DNA from: a virus
Taxonomy: Duplodnaviria; Heunggongvirae; Uroviricota; Caudoviricetes
Reading direction: 5' to 3' (one strand)
IMG/VR virus record: IMGVR_UViG_2737471829_000009
DNA length: 31,211 nucleotides
How positions within the stretch are numbered: position 1 is the stretch's first letter; every line of letters starts with the position of its first letter. Positions 10,326-28,049 of this stretch are shown one piece after another. Below the pieces are notes generated by a model. That model made no database searches. It was not told where the DNA came from and was given only the letters and a program-made list of their open reading frames with translations. The position numbers and the translations under genes were made by a program.

Positions 10326-10676
10326 TTAACTCAGTGGAAGGGTGATAGAAAAAGGCTGGCCTGATGCCGAACGCGTGCCGGTCATATCGACGTACATCGC
10401 GCCGTCATCCTCTCCGCGTTCAAAGGTGATGGTCGTCAGGCTCACGCGCGGCTCCCACTTCTGGATCGCGGAATAACACGCGGCCATAATCTGCAGGCGC
10501 AGTGCCGGGGTCTGCGGCTGGTCCATCAATGCCGACAGCAGCGAGCCGTATTCACGACGCATGACACGCGAGCCCACCGGCGTGACCAGAATGTCGCGCA
10601 CGCTCTGCCTGATATGCTCAACCTCAGAAATACTGAGCCCGGTATGACAGTTCATTCCCAGATAGCTCGTCGTCAT
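10326..10676 (-). CDS. W: Baseplate protein gpW
   Basis: 116-aa ORF downstream of V whose start overlaps the V stop (ATGA coupling). Confidence 0.85.
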   Translation of the reverse strand: MTTSYLGMNCHTGLSISEVEHIRQSVRDILVTPVGSRVMRREYGSLLSALMDQPQTPALRLQIMAACYSAIQKWEPRVSLTTITFERGEDDGAMYVDMTGTRSASGQPFSITLPLS

Positions 10677-11314
10677 TTTGTCCCCACCGTTCTGTCATCG
10701 CCCCGCTTCACGCCGCCGTGGTCGTGGTCATCCACCTGCACGCCGTTGGATTTAAACGTGCCGCCGCCGTGCTCGATGTTGCCGCTCATCTTCCCGCCCT
10801 TTTGCACCTCAAGCGTGGCCGTGGTCAGTTTGTTGGTACAGACCACCTCGGGGGTATCGAGCGTAATGCGGGTGGACGCTTTGACCAGTACCAGCGGCAC
10901 CGTTGCGGTAATGGCGTCCGACGCGGTGACGTCAGCGGTTTTGATGCCACTCACCGTGAGTGACCCGCTTTCGGGTTCGTACTCGATAACCGCTCCGTCA
11001 GGAAAGGAAACGTGAAAGGCATCAGGCGAGGCCGACGGCGCAGGATGGTCATCAGAGAAAATACCGGGCAGCACAAAGGCGGTATCGAGCTCGCCGCCAA
11101 TGGCAAGAATCAGCACCTGCTCGTCAACCGAGGGAGCCCACCAGACACGCGAGCGACCAGCGCGGCAGGTCAGCCAGTTTAACCAGGTGGTTTGCATGCC
11201 GCCGGTCTGGACACGACAAAGCCCCTCATCGGGATTGACTGCAGTCACAATGCCGGTGCGGATAAGGTTACGGATCGCGCGGGCGATATCCTGAATGGAA
11301 TTTAAAGTATTCAT
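10673..11314 (-). CDS. V: Baseplate spike protein gpV
   Basis: 213-aa protein, first gene of the V-W-J-I-H-G operon; N-terminus MNTLNSIQDIARAIRNLIRTGIVTAV. Confidence 0.85.
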   Translation of the reverse strand: MNTLNSIQDIARAIRNLIRTGIVTAVNPDEGLCRVQTGGMQTTWLNWLTCRAGRSRVWWAPSVDEQVLILAIGGELDTAFVLPGIFSDDHPAPSASPDAFHVSFPDGAVIEYEPESGSLTVSGIKTADVTASDAITATVPLVLVKASTRITLDTPEVVCTNKLTTATLEVQKGGKMSGNIEHGGGTFKSNGVQVDDHDHGGVKRGDDRTVGTK

Positions 11315-11738
11315 GGGGAAAGGATGCCGCCGGGCAAGGCCAACGGCAATCGGGCGGGGTTTTGTTAGCTATGAAACAACAACTATCCACTAAGGCATAC
11401 GATCTTATCCAGACTTGGCAGTTTTGATGGGGATGAAAGCAGAACGAAGCTGTGAACAATACACAAAAAGTTGAAACTCATAGTTTTAACAATTATTATC
11501 GCAAAACCAATCGATACGAGTTAATCTAACAAATATTGATTCATGTTAATTTATGTCGTCATACCCACCTAAGGTAATAACACAGATGCTTACAACACCA
11601 ATAAATAACATTGAAGAAGCCTATTAAAATGATTAAATTAAAAAATTATTATTCAAGCATGTATGTTCATGTTTGAAACTCAGCACTTTTGAAAAATAGA
11701 CATTGGACGAAGTTTGGTTAGTAAAAGAGAGGTTAACT

Positions 11739-13370
11739 ATGACAAACAATCCTTTTGTAGATTTTATTGAATTTCTAACTAATAAACATGGCGAAGAAGT
11801 TTGGGTTACTGTTTACAAGACGGAAGAGATCAAGAACACTGATCATGACGGCGGGATGTATTGTGCATTAGTCAGCAAAGAAAAAACTGAAAAAGCAATG
11901 AATCAGGCTGGTTGGGATTTGATGATTGGTAGTGGTGGACCTGGTATTTGCACATCATATCAAGATGGGAAAAGCATAAATACATATTATAAAAATTCAG
12001 ATAATGGTTTTCTCAGGCTTATTCTTGTTCGTGATTTCCATGGTAGAAAAGAAAAATATATAGAGATCCTTGAAGAGTTTCGTCTTTTTCACAATTTATA
12101 TTATGATAATAAAAGTGGTTCATACTTTAGCTTTGATGACTCCGGTGATGAAATCGAAGTAATCAAAGTGCAAAGCAATGAGGTAAAAATCCGTAGGAGA
12201 TATCTACATTCTTTTATGGCCGCCAGTCAAATGAATCTCCTTCTTTATTTTGAGTTAACGAGACACTATAATCATAATTTGACCTTTGCATGCAATGAAA
12301 AAAACGAATCAACCATATACACTATTTATTCAGGGAAATCTTACTCAAAAGGATATATATCTTTCTCAAGAATCATGGGAAAAAAAATAATTAAATGTGA
12401 GTCAATAGACAAGTGTAACTCATGGCCATTTGAATCAAAAAAAACATATCAAGAATTTATTATAGGTGGCGACACTGACGAACCAATAACTTTTTCATGC
12501 AATCCGGATAAATTAGCTAATTATTTTGGTGCCAACCCAGAAGCCCCGCATTATTTGACTCCTGTGTTTTTTAAAAAGGAAGTAATGCAAAAATATTACA
12601 ATTCCTCTGACTATAGTATTACCGATGGGCATCTTTATAGAAAAGGTGCATGGGATCTTCGATTCGATAATAACTCACCTAATCATATATCAGTTTTCTT
12701 AGGTGATCTTGGCAGGGATTTACCTGAGAAAGAACAAATTTACTGGAAAAGTTTTAATTTAATCCCTGACGGTAGAAAAATTAGCAAAACAAATTTTGAG
12801 CGTAGTTTTTTAGGGCGTGTCTCCGACGCAGAAAACCCTGAGCATAAATTTAAAAATAAATTCAAATCACTACAGAAATACTGGAGCAATCGGTATAAAT
12901 GGGATCTATTCCTACCTTTATCCGAGAAAGATGAGCATTTTTTCAACTCATTAAGATCAATGCTTACGAAGGAGCAGTCGGAATTTGACGCACAGGTATT
13001 GGCGTTAACGAAAGTCACTATTGATTCAATTAATGTTAAATCTCTTAGAAATCACCTCAAAGTTACTGATGCAAGCATAAAATCAATAGGGTTAATGGAG
13101 AGTCTTCTTGATAGATTACACTCGCCAAACACATCAACACTAGTAAGTCTTATGCGAGGTATTCAATCAGTAAGATCCACCGGCGTTGCACATAGAAAAG
13201 GTACTGACTACGAAAAAACAATGTCAAAGCTGAATATTAACCATGATGATTATCAGAGAGAATTTGATCAATTACTATTGGGCATGGTTTTTCTATTTGA
13301 AGAAATAATGCGATTGGATGCTGAGAAAGGTGATGAAAAAACCGAGTCAACTACTGATAAACAATTGTAG
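11739..13370 (+). CDS. Hypothetical AT-rich cargo protein (543 aa) with a C-terminal HEPN-like R-x5-H motif; candidate abortive-infection/defence effector
   Basis: Only long plus-strand ORF in the late region, AT-rich with A/T-rich codon usage. Start trimmed from the track's TTG (11703) to the ATG at 11739, which has an AAGAGAGG RBS. C-terminus contains VRSTGVAHRKG; the rest of the protein has no motif I recognise. Confidence 0.75.
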   Translation: MTNNPFVDFIEFLTNKHGEEVWVTVYKTEEIKNTDHDGGMYCALVSKEKTEKAMNQAGWDLMIGSGGPGICTSYQDGKSINTYYKNSDNGFLRLILVRDFHGRKEKYIEILEEFRLFHNLYYDNKSGSYFSFDDSGDEIEVIKVQSNEVKIRRRYLHSFMAASQMNLLLYFELTRHYNHNLTFACNEKNESTIYTIYSGKSYSKGYISFSRIMGKKIIKCESIDKCNSWPFESKKTYQEFIIGGDTDEPITFSCNPDKLANYFGANPEAPHYLTPVFFKKEVMQKYYNSSDYSITDGHLYRKGAWDLRFDNNSPNHISVFLGDLGRDLPEKEQIYWKSFNLIPDGRKISKTNFERSFLGRVSDAENPEHKFKNKFKSLQKYWSNRYKWDLFLPLSEKDEHFFNSLRSMLTKEQSEFDAQVLALTKVTIDSINVKSLRNHLKVTDASIKSIGLMESLLDRLHSPNTSTLVSLMRGIQSVRSTGVAHRKGTDYEKTMSKLNINHDDYQREFDQLLLGMVFLFEEIMRLDAEKGDEKTESTTDKQL

Positions 13371-13451
13371 AAATAAGATTACCTCAACGTATTTTTGCAT
13401 TAGATAAATAAGCACTCACACACTTTAAACTCATAAAAACATATTAAATAG

Positions 13452-13471
13452 CGCCCTAACAAAATAGGGCG
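13452..13471. terminator. Hairpin between convergent genes (cargo ORF and S)
   Basis: CGCCCTA-ACAAAA-TAGGGCG (7-bp stem) in the 119-bp gap; the flank is A/T-rich on the minus strand, consistent with termination of the S-containing late operon. No strong T-run on the plus strand. Confidence 0.4.
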
Positions 13472-13489
13472 TCACTTAATCAGCTAATT

Positions 13490-13936
13490 TTAACCAATAT
13501 AATTAAAGATGAGATTTTCAATAAGTTTTTTATCGTCTTGCCCAAATCCGAGTAACTGGCGTTCCGGGTATTGCACGTCCTGAGCATGAGGGTTAGGCCG
13601 GTCTTTGAGTCCGAGCTGATGAATCTGCGCAATACGTTGCACTTTGCCGGTAAATTCCACCACAGCAGCATCATTGCGGCCACTGGCTTTCATGTAGCGA
13701 CTCGTTCGCAGCTTCTGAAACATCGCCCGTTTTATTCGCCCTTTTTTCGCCCTGAGCGGCTGGCGTTTTCGGGTCTCATACGGTGAGCCGTCCGGCGCTT
13801 TTTGTTGCCTGATACGTTGCTGCTGTGCGGCGCGCAGTTGTTTCGCTATCTCTGCGGCCAGCCTGCGCCGCGACGCCGGTGACAATGCCCCGATAAGCCC
13901 CGCCATCTGGTCATCAAAAGGCGTTAATTCACTCAT
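13490..13936 (-). CDS. S: Tail completion / virion morphogenesis protein gpS
   Basis: 148-aa basic protein directly after R, the position and size of P2 gpS. Confidence 0.8.
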   Translation of the reverse strand: MSELTPFDDQMAGLIGALSPASRRRLAAEIAKQLRAAQQQRIRQQKAPDGSPYETRKRQPLRAKKGRIKRAMFQKLRTSRYMKASGRNDAAVVEFTGKVQRIAQIHQLGLKDRPNPHAQDVQYPERQLLGFGQDDKKLIENLIFNYIG

Positions 13937-19762: not shown

Positions 19763-21532
19763 ATGACCATTTCAACTGACCTCTCCCTTTTGCACGACCC
19801 GCGACGACAGGCGCGCCTGCTGTTCTGGCAGGGGTTTTCCGTGCCACAAATCGCCGACACGCTGCAGGTCAAGCGCCCGACCGTGCAGAGCTGGAAACAA
19901 CGTGACGGCTGGGAGGAAACCGCCCCGCTTAACCGCATGGAATCCACGCTCGAGGCGCACCTGATTCAGCTTTATGCAAAGCCTGACCTGACGCCGCATG
20001 ATTTCAAGGTCGCTGATTTTCTGTCACGCCAGATGGAACGGCTCGCGCGTGTCAGCCGCTACGGCCAGACCGGAAACGAGGCAGATTTAAATCCCAACAT
20101 TGCCAGCCGCAACAAAGGCGACCGGCGCAAGCCAAAACGTAATTTTTTCAGCGATGAGGCTATCGAAAAGCTCGAAGAGATTTTCTTCGATCAATCCTTT
20201 GAGTATCAGCTCAACTGGCACAAGGCCGGTATCGCGCACCGTATTCGCCACATCCTCAAATCGCGCCAGATTGGCGCAACATTCTACTTTGCCCGCGAGT
20301 CACTGCTGCGCGCCCTGAAAACCGGGCAAAACCAGATATTTTTGTCGGCCAGTAAGACGCAGGCTTACGTGTTCCGAAAGTACATCATCGCCTTCGCGCG
20401 CATGGTCGAGGTCGACCTGTCAGGCGACCCGATTGTCATCGGCAACAACGGCGCAGAACTGATTTTTCTCGGGACCAATTCCAACACAGCGCAGAGTCAT
20501 AACGGCGACTTGTATGTCGATGAAATCTTCTGGATCCCCAACTTTCAGAGACTGCGCAAAGTCGCCTCGGGGATGGCGTCGCAGTCCCACCTGCGCACCA
20601 CCTACTTTTCAACCCCCTCGACGCTGGCACATGGTGCTTATCCGTTCTGGTCAGGTGAGCTGTTTAACCGGGGACGCAGCAGCGCCGCCGAACGTGTCGA
20701 CATCGATATCAGTCATAAAGCGCTGGCCGGGGGCGTGCTGTGCCCGGACGGACAGTGGCGGCAGATTGTCACCATCGAGGATGCGCTCGCCGGGGGATGC
20801 ACGCTGTTTAATCTGGATCAGCTGAAACAGGAAAACAGCGCCGATGATTTCCGCAACCTCTTCATGTGTGAATTTGTCGACGACAAGGCATCGGTATTCC
20901 CGTTCGAGGAGCTGCAGCGCTGCATGGTCGATGCGATGGAAGAGTGGGAGGACTTCGAGCCGTTTTCCGACCGTCCGTTTAACTGGCGTCCAGTGTGGAT
21001 TGGCTATGACCCGTCACATACCGGCGACAGCGCAGGCTGCGCGGTACTGGCTCCGCCACTGGTTGCCGGTGGCAAGTTCCGCATCCTTGAGCGTCACCAG
21101 TGGAAAGGCATGGATTTTGCGACGCAGGCCGAGGCCATCCGCGAGCTGACCGAAAAATACTGCGTCGAGTATATCGGCATCGATGCGACCGGCATCGGCC
21201 AGGGGGTTTACCAGCTCGTGCGCTCGTTCTTCCCGGCGGCGCGCGCCATTCGCTACACGCCGGAAATGAAAACCGCGATGGTGCTGAAAGCAAAAGACAC
21301 CATCAGACGCGGGTGTCTGGAATACGACGCCGGGGCAACCGACATCACACAGTCATTTATGGCTATCCGAAAAACCATGACCAGCAGCGGGCGCAGTTCC
21401 ACCTATGAGGCCAGCCGCAGTGAAGAAGCCAGCCACGCGGATATCGCATGGGCAACCATGCACGCCCTGTTAAACGAGCCACTTTCCGCCGGTAGCGGTA
21501 TGCATTCAACGTCAATTCTGGATATTAACTGA
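19763..21532 (+). CDS. P: Terminase ATPase (large) subunit gpP
   Basis: 589-aa protein divergent from O and followed by Q, the P2 arrangement for the terminase large subunit. Confidence 0.9.
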   Translation: MTISTDLSLLHDPRRQARLLFWQGFSVPQIADTLQVKRPTVQSWKQRDGWEETAPLNRMESTLEAHLIQLYAKPDLTPHDFKVADFLSRQMERLARVSRYGQTGNEADLNPNIASRNKGDRRKPKRNFFSDEAIEKLEEIFFDQSFEYQLNWHKAGIAHRIRHILKSRQIGATFYFARESLLRALKTGQNQIFLSASKTQAYVFRKYIIAFARMVEVDLSGDPIVIGNNGAELIFLGTNSNTAQSHNGDLYVDEIFWIPNFQRLRKVASGMASQSHLRTTYFSTPSTLAHGAYPFWSGELFNRGRSSAAERVDIDISHKALAGGVLCPDGQWRQIVTIEDALAGGCTLFNLDQLKQENSADDFRNLFMCEFVDDKASVFPFEELQRCMVDAMEEWEDFEPFSDRPFNWRPVWIGYDPSHTGDSAGCAVLAPPLVAGGKFRILERHQWKGMDFATQAEAIRELTEKYCVEYIGIDATGIGQGVYQLVRSFFPAARAIRYTPEMKTAMVLKAKDTIRRGCLEYDAGATDITQSFMAIRKTMTSSGRSSTYEASRSEEASHADIAWATMHALLNEPLSAGSGMHSTSILDIN

Positions 21533-21533
21533 C

Positions 21534-22544
21534 ATGAAAAAACAACAGAAGAAACCCGCCACAACGACCGCCAGCGCACCGCAAAAAATGGAGGCATTCA
21601 CCTTTGGCGAGCCCTCCGCCGTTCTGGATCGCCGCGATATCCTCGATTATGTCGAGTGCATCAATAACGGAAAGTGGTACGAGCCGCCGGTCAACTTCTC
21701 AGGTCTGGCAAAAAGTCTGCGCGCCGCAGTGCATCACAGCTCGCCGATTTACGTAAAACGAAATATTCTGACGAGCACCTACATCCCGCACCCACTCCTG
21801 TCGCGTCAGGATTTCAGCCGCCTCGTGCTGGATTATCTGGTCTTTGCCAACGGCTATCTTGAGAAGCGCATGAGCGTGACCGGCCAGCTTTTAAAACTGG
21901 AAACATCACCGGCAAAATATACCCGCCGGGGTGTCGAGGAAGGTGTTTACTGGTACATATCGAGCTTTAACAACCCCCACCAGTTCGCACCCGGCTCGGT
22001 GTTTCACTTGCTGGAGCCTGACATCAATCAGGAACTGTACGGCATGCCGGAATACCTGAGCGCACTTAATTCAGCCTGGCTGAATGAATCCGCCACCCTG
22101 TTTCGTCGCAAGTATTATCAGAATGGCGCCCACGCGGGTTACATCATGTACGTCACCGACGCGGCACAGAGCAGCACTGACGTCGAGTCGCTGCGTTCGG
22201 CCATGCGCGATTCAAAGGGGCTCGGGAATTTTAAAAACCTGTTTTTCTACGCACCCAACGGGAAACCGGATGGCATCAAGATTGTGCCGCTAAGTGAGGT
22301 CGCCACGAAAGATGACTTTTTTAATATCAAGAAGGTAAGTGCAGAAGACCTGATGAGTGCGCACAGGGTACCACCACAAATGATGGGGATGATGCCTAAT
22401 AGCACCGGAGGGTTTGGCGATGTAGTAAAAGCTGCTCAGGTATTTGTGAGGAATGAATTAAGCCCTTTACAGGAGCGTATTAAAGATATTAATGAGTGGG
22501 TAGGCGATGAAATCATAAAATTTACAAAATATGATTTAAATTAA
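21534..22544 (+). CDS. Q: Portal vertex protein gpQ
   Basis: 336-aa protein immediately after P, transcribed toward the cos-like site. Confidence 0.9.
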   Translation: MKKQQKKPATTTASAPQKMEAFTFGEPSAVLDRRDILDYVECINNGKWYEPPVNFSGLAKSLRAAVHHSSPIYVKRNILTSTYIPHPLLSRQDFSRLVLDYLVFANGYLEKRMSVTGQLLKLETSPAKYTRRGVEEGVYWYISSFNNPHQFAPGSVFHLLEPDINQELYGMPEYLSALNSAWLNESATLFRRKYYQNGAHAGYIMYVTDAAQSSTDVESLRSAMRDSKGLGNFKNLFFYAPNGKPDGIKIVPLSEVATKDDFFNIKKVSAEDLMSAHRVPPQMMGMMPNSTGGFGDVVKAAQVFVRNELSPLQERIKDINEWVGDEIIKFTKYDLN

Positions 22545-22551
22545 ATTTAAA

Positions 22552-22577
22552 AGCCATCATAGATGGCTTTTTTTTTC
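22552..22577 (+). terminator. Rho-independent terminator after Q (probably bidirectional)
   Basis: AGCCATC-ATA-GATGGCT hairpin followed by a T9 run on the plus strand, 8 nt after the Q stop; it sits between convergent Q and the cargo operon. Confidence 0.65.
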
Positions 22578-23184
22578 AGAAGCCATAGTAATGAAATCTT
22601 AATAGACTTATTATCTTTTCGGCATCACTTACTTCAGAGGAAGGAGCAGATATATTATTTGCATGTCTCGCACCCTTATGGGCTACGGAACCTCTTCTTG
22701 TGCCATAGCTATCTAAGCTTGTTAAGAGAATTGGATCAATTGAACTTTCATCAAAACCGCAAAATAATGCCAACGGTATAAATGAACCTTTTTTAATCCC
22801 ATTGTTTTTCTTAACTTTCAATTCCGCACAATTTATTATCTTTAAGACCGCAGTCTTGAAATCGGTATCATCGAAAGGTTTTGTTATTGAGAGAATCTCG
22901 TCAACCTGATATGCTATTGCTAGTATATTTTTAAAATAAATCGTATTGTAACCATTAGCCACAACATCGTTTTTAATTTTACTTAACATTTCTATCGCTT
23001 TAGCTTCTATATACTCCTCAAGCTCGGCATGAACCAATAATCTATAAGCAGCAATGTTGAGAGTATCAAAATTATAGCCAATAGGATCATTGGCTTCATT
23101 CTTTAACTGTCGATTCATATATTTGCGCTTTAATTTATTGACTCTTTTAGTCATATCATTAAAGAGCTTACTTGCTTTTGGCAT
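22576..23184 (-). CDS. Hypothetical small cargo protein (202 aa) with a HEPN-like R-x5-H motif; putative effector partner of the DUF262 protein
   Basis: AT-rich ORF whose ATG directly abuts the upstream stop (TAA-ATG), with an AGAAGGA RBS. Lys-rich N-terminus; C-terminal TRRGSVAHKGARH motif. Confidence 0.7.
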   Translation of the reverse strand: MPKASKLFNDMTKRVNKLKRKYMNRQLKNEANDPIGYNFDTLNIAAYRLLVHAELEEYIEAKAIEMLSKIKNDVVANGYNTIYFKNILAIAYQVDEILSITKPFDDTDFKTAVLKIINCAELKVKKNNGIKKGSFIPLALFCGFDESSIDPILLTSLDSYGTRRGSVAHKGARHANNISAPSSEVSDAEKIISLLRFHYYGF

Positions 23185-24324
23185 TTACAAGATCCTTCTT
23201 GTATTTCCATCATACTGCATACCCAAAACATGCGCCAAAGAGCGTCCCCACATATCGATTCGAGTATGTGTTGCGAACGTTGTTTTTGGGGTTTTTTCGA
23301 CGGAATCACGATAATCTTGATCCATACAGAGATCTTTGAAAGCATCCTCTACAGCAGAAGCATTTTGCAATGCTGCCTGTGAAACATTCTGGTCGCTAAA
23401 GAATCGAGCAATACAATCAAAAATAGCTCTATTAATCACTCTTTCGTATTTTGTTCCAAGCCATTTTTTAAATGAATTGTCACCAAAAATTTGTACTGTA
23501 GTATCTAAGGCTAGATTTAAAGAATTTAGAGCATCAACGACTTCTTGCTGATAATTAAGCCATCCCTTCTCATAAAACTCTACAATTTCATCAAGGAACT
23601 CTTTGAAGTTACCACGGTACTCTTCTACACGCTTATTATACGCAATGAAACGTAATACAAGCTCAGAGTCACGCATTCTTTTATCAAGTGATTGACCAAA
23701 GAGAGCATGAAACTGATTGCTTTGAGATAAATATGTTTCTATCTCATCAAGGAGTTTACCACCAATAAGTGCTTTACGCAGTTCTTGAGGCGAAAGAGGA
23801 AGGCTACCACTGTTTAATCTGTAGAATATCGCATAAAGGAAGTTTTCGTCTTGCCAACTTCTTATCACTGTTGACCGCAAGGTGCTGTTATCGAGATACT
23901 CACGATCTTCACTTGGGAGTTCGCTATATTTCTGCCCATTAAGCTCTGGTCTAATATCTAAACCTTTAAGTTTAAAATCGTCAGCCAAAAATTCATTAAT
24001 TGCCATAAGCCTCTGCTTTCCGTCAATTACAATGAATCGTCCTCTATGATCTTTTTGTTCAGCAAGTACAATATTTGGTACTGGCATACCCACAATAATA
24101 GATTCAATTAATCTGCTTTTGCGCTTATCGTCCCAAGCACCACGTCTTTGAAAGCTGGGCTGAAGATCAATATTTCCTTTTCTTATCTGGCTATCAATCG
24201 TTTCAATTGTCCAATCTGCATTCATTACCACAGATTCTTTAAATGAAATTGAAGTATTTAAATCATCTTCATCTTCTTGCTGATTATCAGGGATTTGTAG
24301 TTCATATTGATCAATATTAGACAT
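23185..24324 (-). CDS. DUF262 (ParB/Srx-like NTPase-nuclease domain) protein, 379 aa
   Basis: AT-rich ORF with a GAGGTG RBS. N-terminal LQPSFQRRGAWDDKRKSRLIESIIVGMPVPNIVL...FIVIDGKQRLMAINEF matches the DUF262 signature (FQR...W, DGQQR-type motif) as I recall it. No HNH/DUF1524-like motif in the C-terminal half. Confidence 0.75.
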   Translation of the reverse strand: MSNIDQYELQIPDNQQEDEDDLNTSISFKESVVMNADWTIETIDSQIRKGNIDLQPSFQRRGAWDDKRKSRLIESIIVGMPVPNIVLAEQKDHRGRFIVIDGKQRLMAINEFLADDFKLKGLDIRPELNGQKYSELPSEDREYLDNSTLRSTVIRSWQDENFLYAIFYRLNSGSLPLSPQELRKALIGGKLLDEIETYLSQSNQFHALFGQSLDKRMRDSELVLRFIAYNKRVEEYRGNFKEFLDEIVEFYEKGWLNYQQEVVDALNSLNLALDTTVQIFGDNSFKKWLGTKYERVINRAIFDCIARFFSDQNVSQAALQNASAVEDAFKDLCMDQDYRDSVEKTPKTTFATHTRIDMWGRSLAHVLGMQYDGNTRRIL

Positions 24325-24491
24325 AATTCACCTCAATTAGATATTTTCATCCTAAAAATCAGTGGTTAACTTTAAGAAAAAATAAGAAATTGATTTTTAG
24401 AAGGTTTCCGCTCATCCGTATGATGCACAAACAACACTAAAACTTCAACATAATGCCGAAAAGAACCTTACATTTAAGTGTGCATCGCGCA

Positions 24492-24510
24492 ATGCTATCC
24501 CCGCCACGCC
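24492..24510 (-). other. cos-like cohesive-end site
   Basis: Minus strand reads GGCGTGGCGGGGATAGCAT, one or two mismatches from the P2/186 19-nt cohesive ends as I remember them (GGCG[A/T]GGCGGGGAAAGCA[C/T]). It lies in a GC-rich stretch with no convincing ORF. Confidence 0.45.
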
Positions 24511-24792
24511 TGCCCGCTTCAAGGGTCGGTTTTAATGCAGTTGCATGACCACTCAGGATCCGCGCCAGCTCTGGCGGCGCACGAACAGAACGGGCATCCC
24601 CGACGCATGCAAAACAATGCACCTGTTGCATGCACGGCTAAAAAACGGGAAATTCGCGGAAAAATGGCATAATAAAACCGGCTTTAATCGTGCCGGTTGG
24701 GGGCGGTCTCTACGGGACAGGCTAACGCCTCGCGTGGCTCGTTGTTCAACCCCGCTGGCACTGAAAACAAGTTTCAGCACCGGCGGCGTTTG

Positions 24793-25032
24793 CTAAGGTC
24801 GACGCGGTGGTGGCTTCGCCATATTTGGTGGCCGAAACACCTCAATTTTTGGATTGCTGATATCGCTGTATTTGCGGTGATTATCCCGGACGACACCGGC
24901 ACACCCGACCAGTTCGTCAGGTGTCAGATTCTCGTTAATCATAATTTGTTGCAGGCGATGCACGACGGCCATCAGCTTAATGTTTTGCGTTGAATGTACC
25001 GGCGGGACTGGCATCATTCGCATATGACTCAT
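24793..25032 (-). CDS. Hypothetical small protein
   Basis: ATG at about 25032 overlaps the stop of the upstream ASCH-like gene (ATGA coupling); no recognisable domain. Weak call. Confidence 0.35.
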   Translation of the reverse strand: MSHMRMMPVPPVHSTQNIKLMAVVHRLQQIMINENLTPDELVGCAGVVRDNHRKYSDISNPKIEVFRPPNMAKPPPRRP

Positions 25033-25493
25033 TTTAACCACCCATTTTTTTTAGCATATGCGACCATCTTGTCGGAATATTGCCAGACTCCATCATCAGC
25101 GACGTAAGCCCCACCCGAAACGCCGTTAAGCGTTTCGTATCCAATAGCCAGCCCTAACGGGTGTAGAATTTCGCGCTTAATTCTGAAAACAAGCCCTTTC
25201 TCGCTTAACTCTTTCCAGTTCATTAGGGATATACCGCATTGGACATCTGGCATCATTAACTGAAAACTCAGCATCACATAATCTTCCGCCCATTCAGCTA
25301 AATCAGTAACGTTTGTCACCCTCACTGATACACGTTTCCCGGTATATCCGTTTACCGGTTCCCATTCATGCAACCCGAGAATATCACCGCTAGAATAATC
25401 GCGGTCATTGAGTCGAAATTCAGCACATTTTTCCCGAGATATCACCGCGTTAAAATGCTCAGGTGCAATTTTTAACTGATGGATTTTGCTCAT
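25029..25493 (-). CDS. ASCH/PUA-like (DUF3850-like) domain protein at the P2 orf91 position
   Basis: N-terminal KIHQLKIAPEHFNAVISREKCAEFRLNDRDYSSGDIL resembles the ASCH/DUF3850 pattern as recalled. ATG at 25493 overlaps the A stop. Confidence 0.5.
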   Translation of the reverse strand: MSKIHQLKIAPEHFNAVISREKCAEFRLNDRDYSSGDILGLHEWEPVNGYTGKRVSVRVTNVTDLAEWAEDYVMLSFQLMMPDVQCGISLMNWKELSEKGLVFRIKREILHPLGLAIGYETLNGVSGGAYVADDGVWQYSDKMVAYAKKNGWLK

Positions 25494-27784
25494 TAACGCC
25501 ACTCCTTATGCATTGAGAATCCCGGCCACTCATCAGCAGCCACGTATTTGAATTTTTTATCGCCATAAATCACCGTTGCCCCACGCGCCAGCGCTTCAAG
25601 CTCCCACCGTTCCGGGGTAATGCCCTCCTGAGCCAAATCGAAACGAATTTTCGCTAAGCGATCCCTTTCTGGTTTTGTCATCCTGGCTGATGGCGCTTGC
25701 TCGCCCGTTTTGAGTGGCTCATTGCTTCTTTGCTGGCGATTTTTGCGAGGGATGCCAGTTTTTAACGCGCCATTAAGCACCTTCATGACGTCTGGCTCAT
25801 TCCAGCCGATAACCCCGCGCTCAATCAGATTTAACACCGCTGCGGCTTGCTCAGACGGTGTGGGTGTCATAACTGGAGTATCACCGCCGGTGAGCTTTCC
25901 ACAGTTATTGACAGGACTCCGAGGCGCGGCAGAGCCGCTTTTTAAGGTCAAAGGCTCAACGGCAAAAATCTTTGGAACAATGCGCCATTCGGCTGTACGG
26001 GTTACATGTATGCGGCTCGCCCCGAGGTGAGGGGCATAAATGCCGACCACTCTCTCGATATCTTCCTCATATTCGTTGACCTCATCCGTCACCTTACGGG
26101 CGACCCTGACGGCCTGCGCATCACGCGGCATGTTTGCCCCACCCTGCGCGATGATATACAGGTCAAATTCACCTTCATCAGCAGCAGCCCGGACAGCCTC
26201 GACCCGGTCGTCAAATTCACTGGCGATACTCACGCCGCGCGGCAGCTTGCGCAGTTCGCGGTAAGCGCCCATTGTCGGCAGGCCAATTGGTTTAAACTGC
26301 GGGATGCGCCATGTAGACGCCCATGCGGTTACGGCTGCGGCGGTATCTTTCAGAGGCTTTCCGGTGTCGTGGTCGAGCTGGCCGTCGAGTGCGTAGCCGT
26401 CGATATTTTTGGCAATGTATTTAGCGATATAACCCGCCGCGCCGCCCTGATTAAGATGACGTGACTCAAAGCGCTGTTTTGCCGCACCCTTTTCGTGCCC
26501 GTCCTCTTTGAGAGCATAACGACGCATAATTTCGTTAATAGCTTTACGCTGACCGGGTTTGCAAAACAGCATCATGTGCCAGTGTGGCGTCCCGTCGTGG
26601 TGCGGTTCGACAACACGCATCCCGTAAACCTCTAAATCGTTATCTTTGAAAGCGGTGCGTATCAGGCTCCAGATTCGGCACAGATAGCGCTGGCCGTCTT
26701 TGGGGGTAAATGCGGTTTCATTCCAGCCATGATTGAGCTGCACAGTTTTGTTTTCACCTTTGCCGACCTGTCGGGTCGGGTGATACTTCGATGGCGTGGT
26801 CAGCGTGATAAACATCCCCACGTCACCAACGCTGGCCGCGTAGCGTTCAATCCCGGCGATAGTGTTCATCAGTTCCATACGCCGTATTTCAGGATTAGAA
26901 ATACTCCCCATTACCTTACTGATGAGGTCGATACGTTCGCCGGTGACTTTGTTTTCCAACTCGCAGGATTTCAGGTATTCGAGATTAGCCAGTCGGCGCG
27001 CGTGCACATCGCGGATCGCCATTTTACTTGCGTAAGGTGAGCGGTCTTTGTTGACTTCACCAGCCGCAATAAGCAGCGCCTCGCGCCAGCGCATCCGCTG
27101 CGCCTTGAGCTGGCTGCCCCACCACTCATCTTTTATCAGACGGGAAATAGCAGAAAATGCCATGCGGATCGTCATCTGACCCTTACGGTATTTTTTCCAG
27201 TACATCGGGGTGAAGTTAAAAGCGCGAGCAATACCGGCCACCTGACCGTATAAATGAGCCTGCGCCTCATCGGTGAATAAAGTGTCTTTCCCGCCGTGCG
27301 CCTCCTCCCATGCGTCGCTTAACTCTTCGTATTTGCTCCAGAGTTGAGAAGCAATTCTGGCCGCAAATTTCTTAAGCTCTTTGTCATTCATATCCGGCAG
27401 GCACGCATACTGGTCACGCTCGGACAAAAAACCAATCGAGGCGGATTCATTCATCCCGCACAGCTCATTAACACGCTCAAGACGCGGCAGCAGCTTGCGC
27501 TCAAACGTGTTTTTGAGGAAATACAGCCCACCCAAAGGGCTCTTTGTGCGGCGGATGAAGTTATAACGCGCGGTAAACAGCGTTTGCAGGAAAAACGGCA
27601 GGCGATCAATCCGGTTTAAAACACCTTGCACCTGACGGAGTTCGGCACGTGTAAGGGGTCTGTCGCGGCCAACTGCCTCGCGGGATTTATTCCACGGATA
27701 AGCACCGACGAAATTATCACCGGTGCTTTTGGGTAGTGGCGGAGGTGGCGAGGGGGCAACGCGCCCCCGAGTTTCAACGGCCAT
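25493..27784 (-). CDS. A: Rolling-circle replication initiator / endonuclease gpA
   Basis: Start trimmed to MAVETRGRVAPSPPPP... (ATG at 27784); long colinear match to P2 gpA as recalled. Confidence 0.9.
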   Translation of the reverse strand: MAVETRGRVAPSPPPPLPKSTGDNFVGAYPWNKSREAVGRDRPLTRAELRQVQGVLNRIDRLPFFLQTLFTARYNFIRRTKSPLGGLYFLKNTFERKLLPRLERVNELCGMNESASIGFLSERDQYACLPDMNDKELKKFAARIASQLWSKYEELSDAWEEAHGGKDTLFTDEAQAHLYGQVAGIARAFNFTPMYWKKYRKGQMTIRMAFSAISRLIKDEWWGSQLKAQRMRWREALLIAAGEVNKDRSPYASKMAIRDVHARRLANLEYLKSCELENKVTGERIDLISKVMGSISNPEIRRMELMNTIAGIERYAASVGDVGMFITLTTPSKYHPTRQVGKGENKTVQLNHGWNETAFTPKDGQRYLCRIWSLIRTAFKDNDLEVYGMRVVEPHHDGTPHWHMMLFCKPGQRKAINEIMRRYALKEDGHEKGAAKQRFESRHLNQGGAAGYIAKYIAKNIDGYALDGQLDHDTGKPLKDTAAAVTAWASTWRIPQFKPIGLPTMGAYRELRKLPRGVSIASEFDDRVEAVRAAADEGEFDLYIIAQGGANMPRDAQAVRVARKVTDEVNEYEEDIERVVGIYAPHLGASRIHVTRTAEWRIVPKIFAVEPLTLKSGSAAPRSPVNNCGKLTGGDTPVMTPTPSEQAAAVLNLIERGVIGWNEPDVMKVLNGALKTGIPRKNRQQRSNEPLKTGEQAPSARMTKPERDRLAKIRFDLAQEGITPERWELEALARGATVIYGDKKFKYVAADEWPGFSMHKEWR

Positions 27785-28049
27785 CTGCAGCAAACGCAGT
27801 CTGACATTGCTGACCAATGCGCTCGACCTGCTCGCCAATGTCCGCAAAACTGACCGCCTCACCGGTCAGAATGCCATGTAATATCAGACCAGATACGAGT
27901 CTGGAAATTGTTGGATAATAGCCAATAACACCGAGCCACTCTTTACCGGCGCTCTTTCCTGATTTTGCGGTTTTCTTTTCCTGCAAAATAAATTGAAACT
28001 GGTCACTAGTGACGACGAAACGGTCGCCCACCTCAATATAAATTGACAT
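27774..28049 (-). CDS. Hypothetical early-operon protein
   Basis: 91-aa ORF with an ATG start, overlapping the A start by about 10 nt and coupled to the upstream ORF. Confidence 0.5.
   Translation of the reverse strand: MSIYIEVGDRFVVTSDQFQFILQEKKTAKSGKSAGKEWLGVIGYYPTISRLVSGLILHGILTGEAVSFADIGEQVERIGQQCQTAFAADGR

Follow-up and report, generated by a model that had tools for sequence, protein, structure and literature searches.

A DUF262 and HEPN gene pair between cos and the portal gene of a P2-like prophage, probably an anti-phage module of the PD-T4-2 type

Known DUF262 and HEPN systems and the gene pair of the window

The PD-T4-2 defense system was recovered by functional selection from Escherichia coli ECOR65 and was described as "DUF262, HEPN" (PMC9519451). 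By HHpred, its A protein falls into PF03235 and its B protein into both PF18735 (97.8%) and PF18737 (PMC9519451). PD-T4-2 protected K-12 against T4, and its deletion sensitized the native strain (PMC9519451; Vassallo 2022). PD-T4-2, Menshen, and Dazbog have been listed as DUF262 systems without DUF1524, with PF18735 entered under PD-T4-2 (PMC10952713, PMC12065111), and a 2013 survey of HEPN domains had tabulated "Ribo L-PSP-HEPN ... operon with ParB" (PMC3710099). No mechanistic study of PD-T4-2 was found in the literature searched, in which a 2026 preprint merely cites the system as HEPN-containing. The gene pair analyzed here is encoded by a 31,211-nucleotide (nt) stretch of caudoviricete DNA (IMG/VR record IMGVR_UViG_2737471829_000009; the window), which is a nearly complete P2-like prophage. 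The pair consists of gene A (23185..24324, minus strand; 379 amino acids, aa) and gene B (22576..23184, minus strand; 202 aa), together termed the cassette. RefSeq labels the two products "DUF262 domain-containing protein" and "hypothetical protein," respectively.

By sequence, the cassette appears to belong to the DUF262+HEPN class typified by PD-T4-2, as a divergent member and not as PD-T4-2 proper. It is probably an anti-phage module of this type that a P2-like prophage carries as cargo for lysogenic conversion and that works roughly as a sensor controlling an RNase. Its architecture, its domain pairing, and its genomic niche are all already known. The original prediction, made from the nucleotide sequence, had proposed an anti-phage module in the form of an unnamed, novel system with split sensor and effector. 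The DUF262 and HEPN domains and the probable role held, while the novelty was not borne out given the description of PD-T4-2, the 2013 link between HEPN and ParB operons, and the published status of the hotspot in which the cassette lies.

Gene A encodes an N-terminal ParB-like DUF262 (GmrSD_N) NTPase domain followed by a helical C-terminal domain. The protein matched PF03235 (GmrSD_N/DUF262) at 1.1e-26 and no further Pfam domain. All three DUF262 motifs were present: Q59R60xxxW64 (QRRGAW; 24133-24150, minus strand), D101GKQR105 (24010-24024, minus strand), and F167xxxN171 (FYRLN; 23812-23826, minus strand). These correspond to the QR, DGxQR, and FxxxN motifs by which DUF262 is recognized in GmrSD, BrxU, and SspE, and they were invariant in a 15-sequence alignment that included Pseudomonas, Burkholderiales, and Achromobacter. 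Both the DUF262 signature first read in the protein (FQRRGAW and VIDGKQRL) and the lack of a fused DUF1524/HNH nuclease were confirmed; the Pfam search gave no DUF1524/HNH match and no nucleotidyltransferase match in A, which ends at 379 aa with its helical domain. A sequence-profile search of A against PDB chains returned nothing significant. Codons 12-21 of A (24262-24291) encode an acidic N-terminal peptide, IPDNQQEDEDDL, located outside the Pfam DUF262 match. Residues P12, Q15, Q16, E17, E19, and D21 of this peptide were invariant, and the peptide was as strongly conserved across the clade as the catalytic motifs.

Gene B encodes a stand-alone, all-alpha HEPN protein of the RiboL-PSP type. 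The HEPN motif proposed for this partner protein, TRRGSVAHKGARH, was present, and its HEPN nature was upheld through R164-x4-H169 (R164-G-S-V-A-H169; 22678-22695, minus strand), a conserved catalytic-type Rx4H motif; the second "RH" (R173-H174) was not conserved. Further invariant residues were H52, E54, E56, E60, and N127-N-G129. Among 143 diverse representatives, E60, N127, R164, G165, and H169 were invariant. Against PF18735 (HEPN_RiboL-PSP) the window protein scored 22.0 bits, under the gathering threshold of 28.4. Two of its homologues exceeded that threshold (P0014, 30.3 bits; P0020, 29.4 bits), and the clade profile of B reached PF18735-annotated proteins at 1e-35 to 1e-44. The assignment of B to HEPN/PF18735 is firm because homologues pass the threshold, the clade profile reaches PF18735 proteins, and the residues named above are invariant. 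The structure model of B showed an all-alpha HEPN fold (pLDDT 93). No PIN domain was matched in B, which is a single all-alpha HEPN domain, and a sequence-profile search of B against PDB chains returned nothing significant. The HEPN call for B, which on its own remained under threshold, needed profile and fold evidence. An exhaustive search related 551 representative clusters to B at E<=1e-3 and eight at E<=1e-30, all of them stand-alone proteins of ~200 aa.

Both proteins were compared with the PADLOC models of PD-T4-2. The PD-T4-2_A model matched A at 8.9e-39 (131.6 bits), with aa 27-340 aligned to profile positions 27-337 of 363. The PD-T4-2_B model matched B at an E-value of 2.5e-3 (15.8 bits) over aa 152-196, 45 residues around the Rx4H helix. 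PD-T4-2_B was nonetheless the sole PADLOC family that relatives of B matched recurrently (43 of 143; best E-value 3.2e-6). No strong PD-T4-2_B match occurred among ten short matches of the B profile and the 143 representatives. Because B reached only 15.8 bits and no relative went beyond 3e-6, the homology of B to PD-T4-2 B appears remote by these profile scores. B would probably be rejected as PD-T4-2_B by an automated caller, and standard callers would probably leave the cassette unannotated. The PADLOC-type PD-T4-2_B models are too narrow, since 43 of the 143 relatives touch the model and all do so weakly; broader models would annotate many pairs now listed as "DUF262 + hypothetical protein."

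Conservation of the pair and its proposed function

The stop codon of A (TAA) is immediately followed by the start codon of B (ATG). A Shine-Dalgarno sequence, GAGGTG (24329-24334), lies 5 nt ahead of the A ATG, and AAGGA lies 8 nt upstream of the B ATG. A B homologue directly followed A in 25 of the 25 loci first fetched through A homologues, which came from E. coli, IMG/VR viral contigs, Pectobacterium, Pseudomonas, Achromobacter, Paraburkholderia, Cyanobium, Luteimonas, Lysobacter, and metagenome-assembled genomes. The A-then-B order was also found in six later loci from Enterobacter, Serratia, Pantoea, and Pseudomonas. The A stop and the B start were -4 to +12 nt apart in the 15 non-identical loci that were measured. 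The tight coupling expected of A and B was borne out by their abutting genes and by their adjacency in all loci read.

Identities were calculated with the window pair as reference (100% for both proteins). The closest Enterobacterales pair shared 91% identity in A and 80% in B, the Pectobacterium pair 78% and 61%, and the pair on an IMG/VR contig (L016) 70% and 50%. Pairs from Pseudomonas, Achromobacter, Cyanobium, and Lysobacter were 61-68% identical in A and 35-37% in B, and pairs from Microcystis, Syntrophomonadaceae, and an ENA contig 38-41% in A and 27-29% in B. Omega was 0.03-0.08 for A and B with synonymous sites saturated, and B gained ~2.4 times more non-synonymous change than A. A and B are an old, obligate, co-diverging unit under strong purifying selection. 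Gene-wide positive selection on B was considered separately and rejected (B omega 0.04-0.08).

Among complete E. coli genomes, 11 of 5426 contained the cassette. Ten of these 11 genomes belonged to "OkiPb" bovine feces isolates and carried it at near-identical coordinates, so the apparent prevalence in E. coli is inflated by a clonal sample. A scan of genome contigs gave only nine close relatives, the patterns chosen for it being clade-specific. Homologous pairs outside P2-like phages were found in Pseudomonas, Achromobacter, Cyanobium, Lysobacter, and Microcystis. Cyanobium sp. Morenito 9A2 encodes an A protein that shares 63% identity with that of E. coli, a level also seen in betaproteobacteria, and this points to either a recent inter-phylum transfer or unusually strong constraint on A. 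In Achromobacter (L002/L003, 4731-5825) the pair is immediately downstream of a DUF4238 gene. A DUF4238 protein has been validated as a single-gene anti-T7 defense (Rousset 2022), and the Achromobacter DUF4238 gene and pair form a small defense cluster outside any P2 prophage.

The closest structural matches of B were HEPN toxins of HEPN-MNT toxin-antitoxin systems (5yep_B, 7ae2_A, 8xdj_A). These matches, together with the tight translational-coupling geometry of A and B, would suit a toxin-antitoxin or addiction module in which B is a HEPN toxin restrained by A as a protein antitoxin, with stabilization of the prophage through post-segregational killing as the main role. Vassallo also remarked that several of the new systems resemble toxins of toxin-antitoxin systems (PMC9519451). 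Such a role is rather improbable for the cassette. The A protein is neither an MNT nucleotidyltransferase nor a known antitoxin but a DUF262 NTPase of 379 aa, whose catalytic motifs are intact and which is better conserved than B. Signs of an RNA antitoxin were lacking, as positions 22300-25100 held no tandem repeats and no Rfam match above threshold (repeats there were at chance level only), and an integrated prophage has little need of addiction. Wiring of the toxin-antitoxin kind is compatible with phage defense, and addiction is in part a sub-case of the proposed sensor-to-RNase module.

In the sensor-to-RNase model, A, with its ParB-like DUF262 NTPase domain and helical DNA-binding-type domain, would be the sensor and would bind invading, possibly base-modified, phage DNA. 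NTP binding and hydrolysis would serve A as a switch, as they do for DUF262 in GmrSD, BrxU, and SspE. The B protein would be the effector, a HEPN RNase that dimerizes to form the Rx4H active site. Activated by A, B would cut RNA (tRNA, rRNA, or mRNA) and halt translation, and the translation stop would block superinfection, with the infected cell probably sacrificed. We infer defense by this clade, the trigger of A, the control of B by A, the RNA target of B, and the abortive outcome. If active, the cassette would provide a divergent and easily cloned representative of the DUF262+HEPN class (1.95 kb including the native promoter). Its unusually slow-evolving sensor and its small effector with a confident fold would make it a convenient model for how a DNA-reading, ParB-like NTPase switches on an RNase.

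The same DUF262 domain could serve type IV-like restriction of DNA instead. Modified phage DNA would then be cut by A as a ParB-like nuclease, or by A and a nuclease of the host, with B as an adaptor or regulator without catalytic function. GmrSD, BrxU, and SspE, all of which use DUF262 as their sensor, restrict modified DNA (PMC10952713, PMC12065111), and Anantharaman 2013 listed ParB as an endoDNase fold in restriction-modification contexts (PMC3710099). PD-T4-2 was selected on T4, whose DNA contains glucosyl-hmC (glucosylated hydroxymethylcytosine), and Rousset labeled a Vibrio DUF262+DUF262/DndB+HEPN locus "Type-IV restriction" (PMC9122126). The A protein, however, is without the DUF1524 His-Me nuclease that is the cutting part of GmrSD, BrxU, and SspE. 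The invariance of Rx4H and of polar residues of B in 143 diverged representatives would also be unexpected in a non-catalytic adaptor, and restriction by the cassette is judged quite improbable.

Several observations weigh against a PD-T4-2-type sensor-to-RNase module. The model itself is borrowed, by analogy, from GmrSD/BrxU/SspE and from other HEPN systems. In the structure model of A the N-terminal domain had a pLDDT <50, too poor for a structural check of the NTP pocket, and B alone fell below the Pfam threshold for PF18735. Closeness to PD-T4-2 was judged from PADLOC profile models; on those models B reached 15.8 bits for PD-T4-2_B, none of its 143 relatives scored better than 3e-6, and A scored higher on NsnA (255 bits) than on PD-T4-2_A (132 bits). 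Lastly, the methylase-linked distant pairs described below hint at a logic resembling restriction-modification, which is not possible for a cassette that has no methylase.

Position of the cassette on the portal side of cos

Between gpA and gpQ lies a published P2 defense hotspot, for which 18,150 loci yielded 1,650 arrangements (PMC9122126, PMC9519451), and DUF262+methylase+HEPN arrangements have already been listed for it by Rousset (PMC9122126). The window cassette is inside this hotspot, in the order gpA-like gene (25493..27862), DUF3850 gene, cos, A, B, and Q. Across the window the order is tail genes, capsid genes, terminase P (19763-21532, plus strand), portal Q (21534-22544, plus strand), cargo, the gpA-type replication gene (25493-27862, minus strand), the cox/C region, and the integrase. 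From Q to gpA the interval is composed of a hairpin, gene B, gene A, 167 nt of non-coding DNA, the cos 19-mer, an 82-aa open reading frame (ORF), and a DUF3850 orf91-like gene.

The cargo forms an AT-rich island (22450..24480) whose low-GC tract opens in the final ~95 nt of Q and stops just short of cos. Measured over 100-nt intervals, GC content was 0.22-0.46 from ~22450 to ~24480 vs. 0.52-0.64 in the flanks. The last ~95 nt of Q (22450-22544) had a GC content of 0.25-0.27. Portal Q is intact and aligned with P2 Q through its final residue despite this low-GC 3′ end. The island apparently has its recombination boundary within Q and thereby supplies both the 3′ end of that gene and the terminator. 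A bidirectional, terminator-like hairpin (22549-22571; AAAAGCCATC-ATA-GATGGCTTTT, with a 10-bp stem) is located 5 nt past the Q stop and 5 nt short of the B stop. It is common to the convergent genes Q (plus strand) and B (minus strand), received a terminator-like score on both strands, and differs in sequence from P2 tQ and 186 tW, both of which are at the equivalent position.

The cos 19-mer, GGCGTGGCGGGGATAGCAT (24492-24510, minus strand), matched P2 cos at 16 of 19 positions, for which ~0.01 occurrences are expected by chance, and 186 cos at 18 of 19. It marks the end of the virion genome, and the cassette begins 167 nt inside. The upstream non-coding region (24325..24491, minus strand) had a GC content of 0.22-0.41. 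A promoter scan of the minus strand found no sigma-70 match of at least 9/12 upstream of A; only a weak candidate, TTGAAG (24443-24448) - N17 - CATCAT (24420-24425), could be inferred. In an alignment of the upstream region these hexamers were kept only in the three closest relatives, and the cos core was invariant.

The left end of P2 consists of cosL (1-19), tQ (160-181), and Q (187-1221), with tin and old on the gpA side, up to cosR. The left end of 186 is similar, and in both phages ~165 nt with the tQ or tW terminator separate cosL from the portal gene. Of this left-end sequence, only the ~30-nt cos core is common to the window, P2, and 186; the GC-rich ~140 nt between cos and tQ have been replaced. 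In ~24 cos-delimited Peduoviridae records the portal 3′ end was 146-330 nt from the genome end with no cargo there, and in Klebsiella phage ST147-VIM1phi7.1 cos was 170 nt from Q with no cargo between them. In total, no Q-side cargo was present in ~25 other Peduoviridae genomes checked. Each of the 11 pair-bearing P2-like loci had the same 19-mer cos 110-240 nt upstream of A and the order cos, A, B, and convergent Q. Beside the pair, the cargo on the gpA side varied among E. coli, Enterobacter, Serratia, and Pantoea, where it comprised DUF3850 genes, a type II restriction-modification system, or unrelated ORFs (the last in Pantoea). DUF262-HEPN pairs were found elsewhere as well: on the gpA side beside a methyltransferase in Peduovirus P24B2, and between tail genes in a Klebsiella Peduoviridae phage. 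Being on the Q side of cos is mildly unusual, and no other feature of the cassette is more so.

These results confirmed every element of the layout given in the original prediction. The ORF coordinates and the GC profile confirmed two coupled ORFs in an AT-rich island, and the hairpin scored on both strands confirmed that they converge with Q on a common terminator. A cargo on the Q side of cos, unlike old and tin of P2 on the A side, was verified from the P2 and 186 maps. Its status as cargo at a variable prophage site was supported by the differing neighboring cargo among relatives. The variability applied to the gpA side; the Q-side segment itself was empty in ~25 other genomes and held the pair in fixed order in 11.

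The fixed place in the segment between cos and Q could also reflect a role in the phage's own biology. During lytic growth of P2 the cassette might, for instance, act on packaging, on replication, or on host RNA. The pair was in this segment in each of the 11 P2-like loci examined for cos, with the 19-mer 110-240 nt upstream of A, and the segment was empty in the ~25 other Peduoviridae genomes. Most P2-like phages are without the pair, which occurred in 11 of 5426 complete E. coli genomes, and the base composition of the cassette is foreign. Homologous pairs also exist outside P2-like phages (Pseudomonas, Achromobacter, Cyanobium, Lysobacter, and Microcystis), and other cargo sites are used in phages, namely the tail-gene interval of the Klebsiella phage and the gpA side in P24B2. 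A role in the phage's own biology is highly improbable.

It is unlikely, though somewhat conceivable, that the window clade is a mechanistically separate and widely transferred DUF262-HEPN system, which would couple DNA recognition directly to RNA cleavage without an ATPase or a methylase and for which the fixed Q-side place ~170 nt inside the left cohesive end could matter functionally. This reading is based on A proteins that keep 61-68% identity between E. coli and Cyanobium or Lysobacter, and on the failure of current defense-finder models to recognize the B proteins. The fixed place at the left end may put the cassette among the first DNA available for expression, or may be tied to the function of cos.

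Other cargo was observed around the cassette and in its relatives. On the gpA side of the window (24793-25502) are a DUF3850+DUF7415 protein of 157 aa, the counterpart of P2 orf91, and the 82-aa ORF. The latter had no family match, and RefSeq gives a 74-aa hypothetical protein there; neither the 157-aa protein nor the 82-aa ORF had a PADLOC match. In a Serratia P2-like prophage (L034, 1770-4645) the gpA side encodes an Eco57I-type methylase and a BsuBI/PstI-family restriction endonuclease while the pair is on the Q side; the Serratia hotspot therefore contains two systems, one per side of cos. A second AT-rich island of the window (11315-13490; GC content 0.34-0.43 vs. 0.56-0.60 in the flanks) is located between a gpV-like spike gene (10673-11314, minus strand) and a gpS-like gene (13490-13936, minus strand), a position we take to be the P2 orf30 slot. 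It contains an ORF of 555 aa from a TTG start (11703-13370, plus strand), for which RefSeq gives a 543-aa "hypothetical protein" (WP_052318713.1). This ORF had no Pfam or PADLOC match and is possibly a further cargo or defense candidate.

Comparison with known systems

The best PADLOC model for A was NsnA of Menshen (NsnABC; Millman 2022), which matched at 2.9e-76 (255 bits) with aa 19-365 aligned to profile positions 32-381 of 385. Like Menshen, the cassette has an A protein that is NsnA-like over its full length, with the ParB-DUF262 and helical "ParBDB" layout, and a proposed logic in which a DUF262 sensor is upstream of an RNase effector (PMC12065111; Zhang-lab NAR 2025). Unlike Menshen, it is without the NsnB ABC ATPase and without NsnC (inactive PIN plus nuclease), and it consists of two genes between cos and Q. 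No NsnB-type ATPase was found in any locus read; in the window, A is followed only by the 202-aa HEPN gene and then by convergent Q. All HEPN-paired DUF262 proteins tested, including those of Pseudomonas, Achromobacter, Microcystis, Syntrophomonadaceae, P24B2, and the Klebsiella phage, scored 185-255 bits on NsnA and 117-131 bits on PD-T4-2_A. The NsnA model is generic for DUF262+ParBDB proteins because it was the best model for every one of these proteins, and the tested clades appear, on these scores, about equally far from PD-T4-2. Identity with Menshen was rejected, as the cassette has no NsnB or NsnC and the NsnA model is not diagnostic.

GmrSD, BrxU, and SspE carry a fused DUF1524 His-Me DNase, whereas a separate, RNase-type HEPN protein takes the place of the effector here. 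The PADLOC matches of SspE and HEC-05/06 on A covered its N-terminal ~60 residues only. In HEPN-MNT (HepT/MntA) systems the HEPN toxin is paired with an MNT antitoxin; the neighbor of B is a DUF262 protein.

Methylase-linked DUF262-HEPN loci share the DUF262-then-HEPN order with the cassette, and some of them are in the P2 gpA-gpQ hotspot. They differ in having a cytosine methylase gene within or next to the locus, in some cases together with Vsr; no methylase gene was found beside the window cassette. Window A was 33-41% identical to the A proteins of these loci. The distant pairs of Microcystis (L026) and Syntrophomonadaceae (L027/L028) occurred with a cytosine-5 DNA methylase (PF00145), one of them also with a Vsr mismatch endonuclease, and the DUF262+HEPN pair of Peduovirus P24B2 (L030) occurred with a phage DNA methyltransferase. 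The P24B2 pair further differs from the cassette in its HEPN protein, which is of the MAE_28990 type (239 aa), and in its location on the gpA side of cos. These loci suggest that a modification component, absent from the window cassette, takes part in some branches of the family.

The old and tin genes of P2 are, like the cassette, AT-rich lysogenic-conversion genes beside cos in the gpA-gpQ interval, with their own promoter near cos (a putative one in the cassette). They encode unrelated proteins (the OLD ABC-ATPase/TOPRIM nuclease and Tin) and are on the opposite side of cos. The sequences of the cassette and PD-T4-2 are far apart, with 202 aa in window B vs. 168 positions in the model and 379 aa in window A vs. 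363. The two share a two-gene operon in which a DUF262 protein without DUF1524 comes first and a small, stand-alone, PF18735-type HEPN protein second, and both are found in mobile or prophage-type contexts of E. coli.

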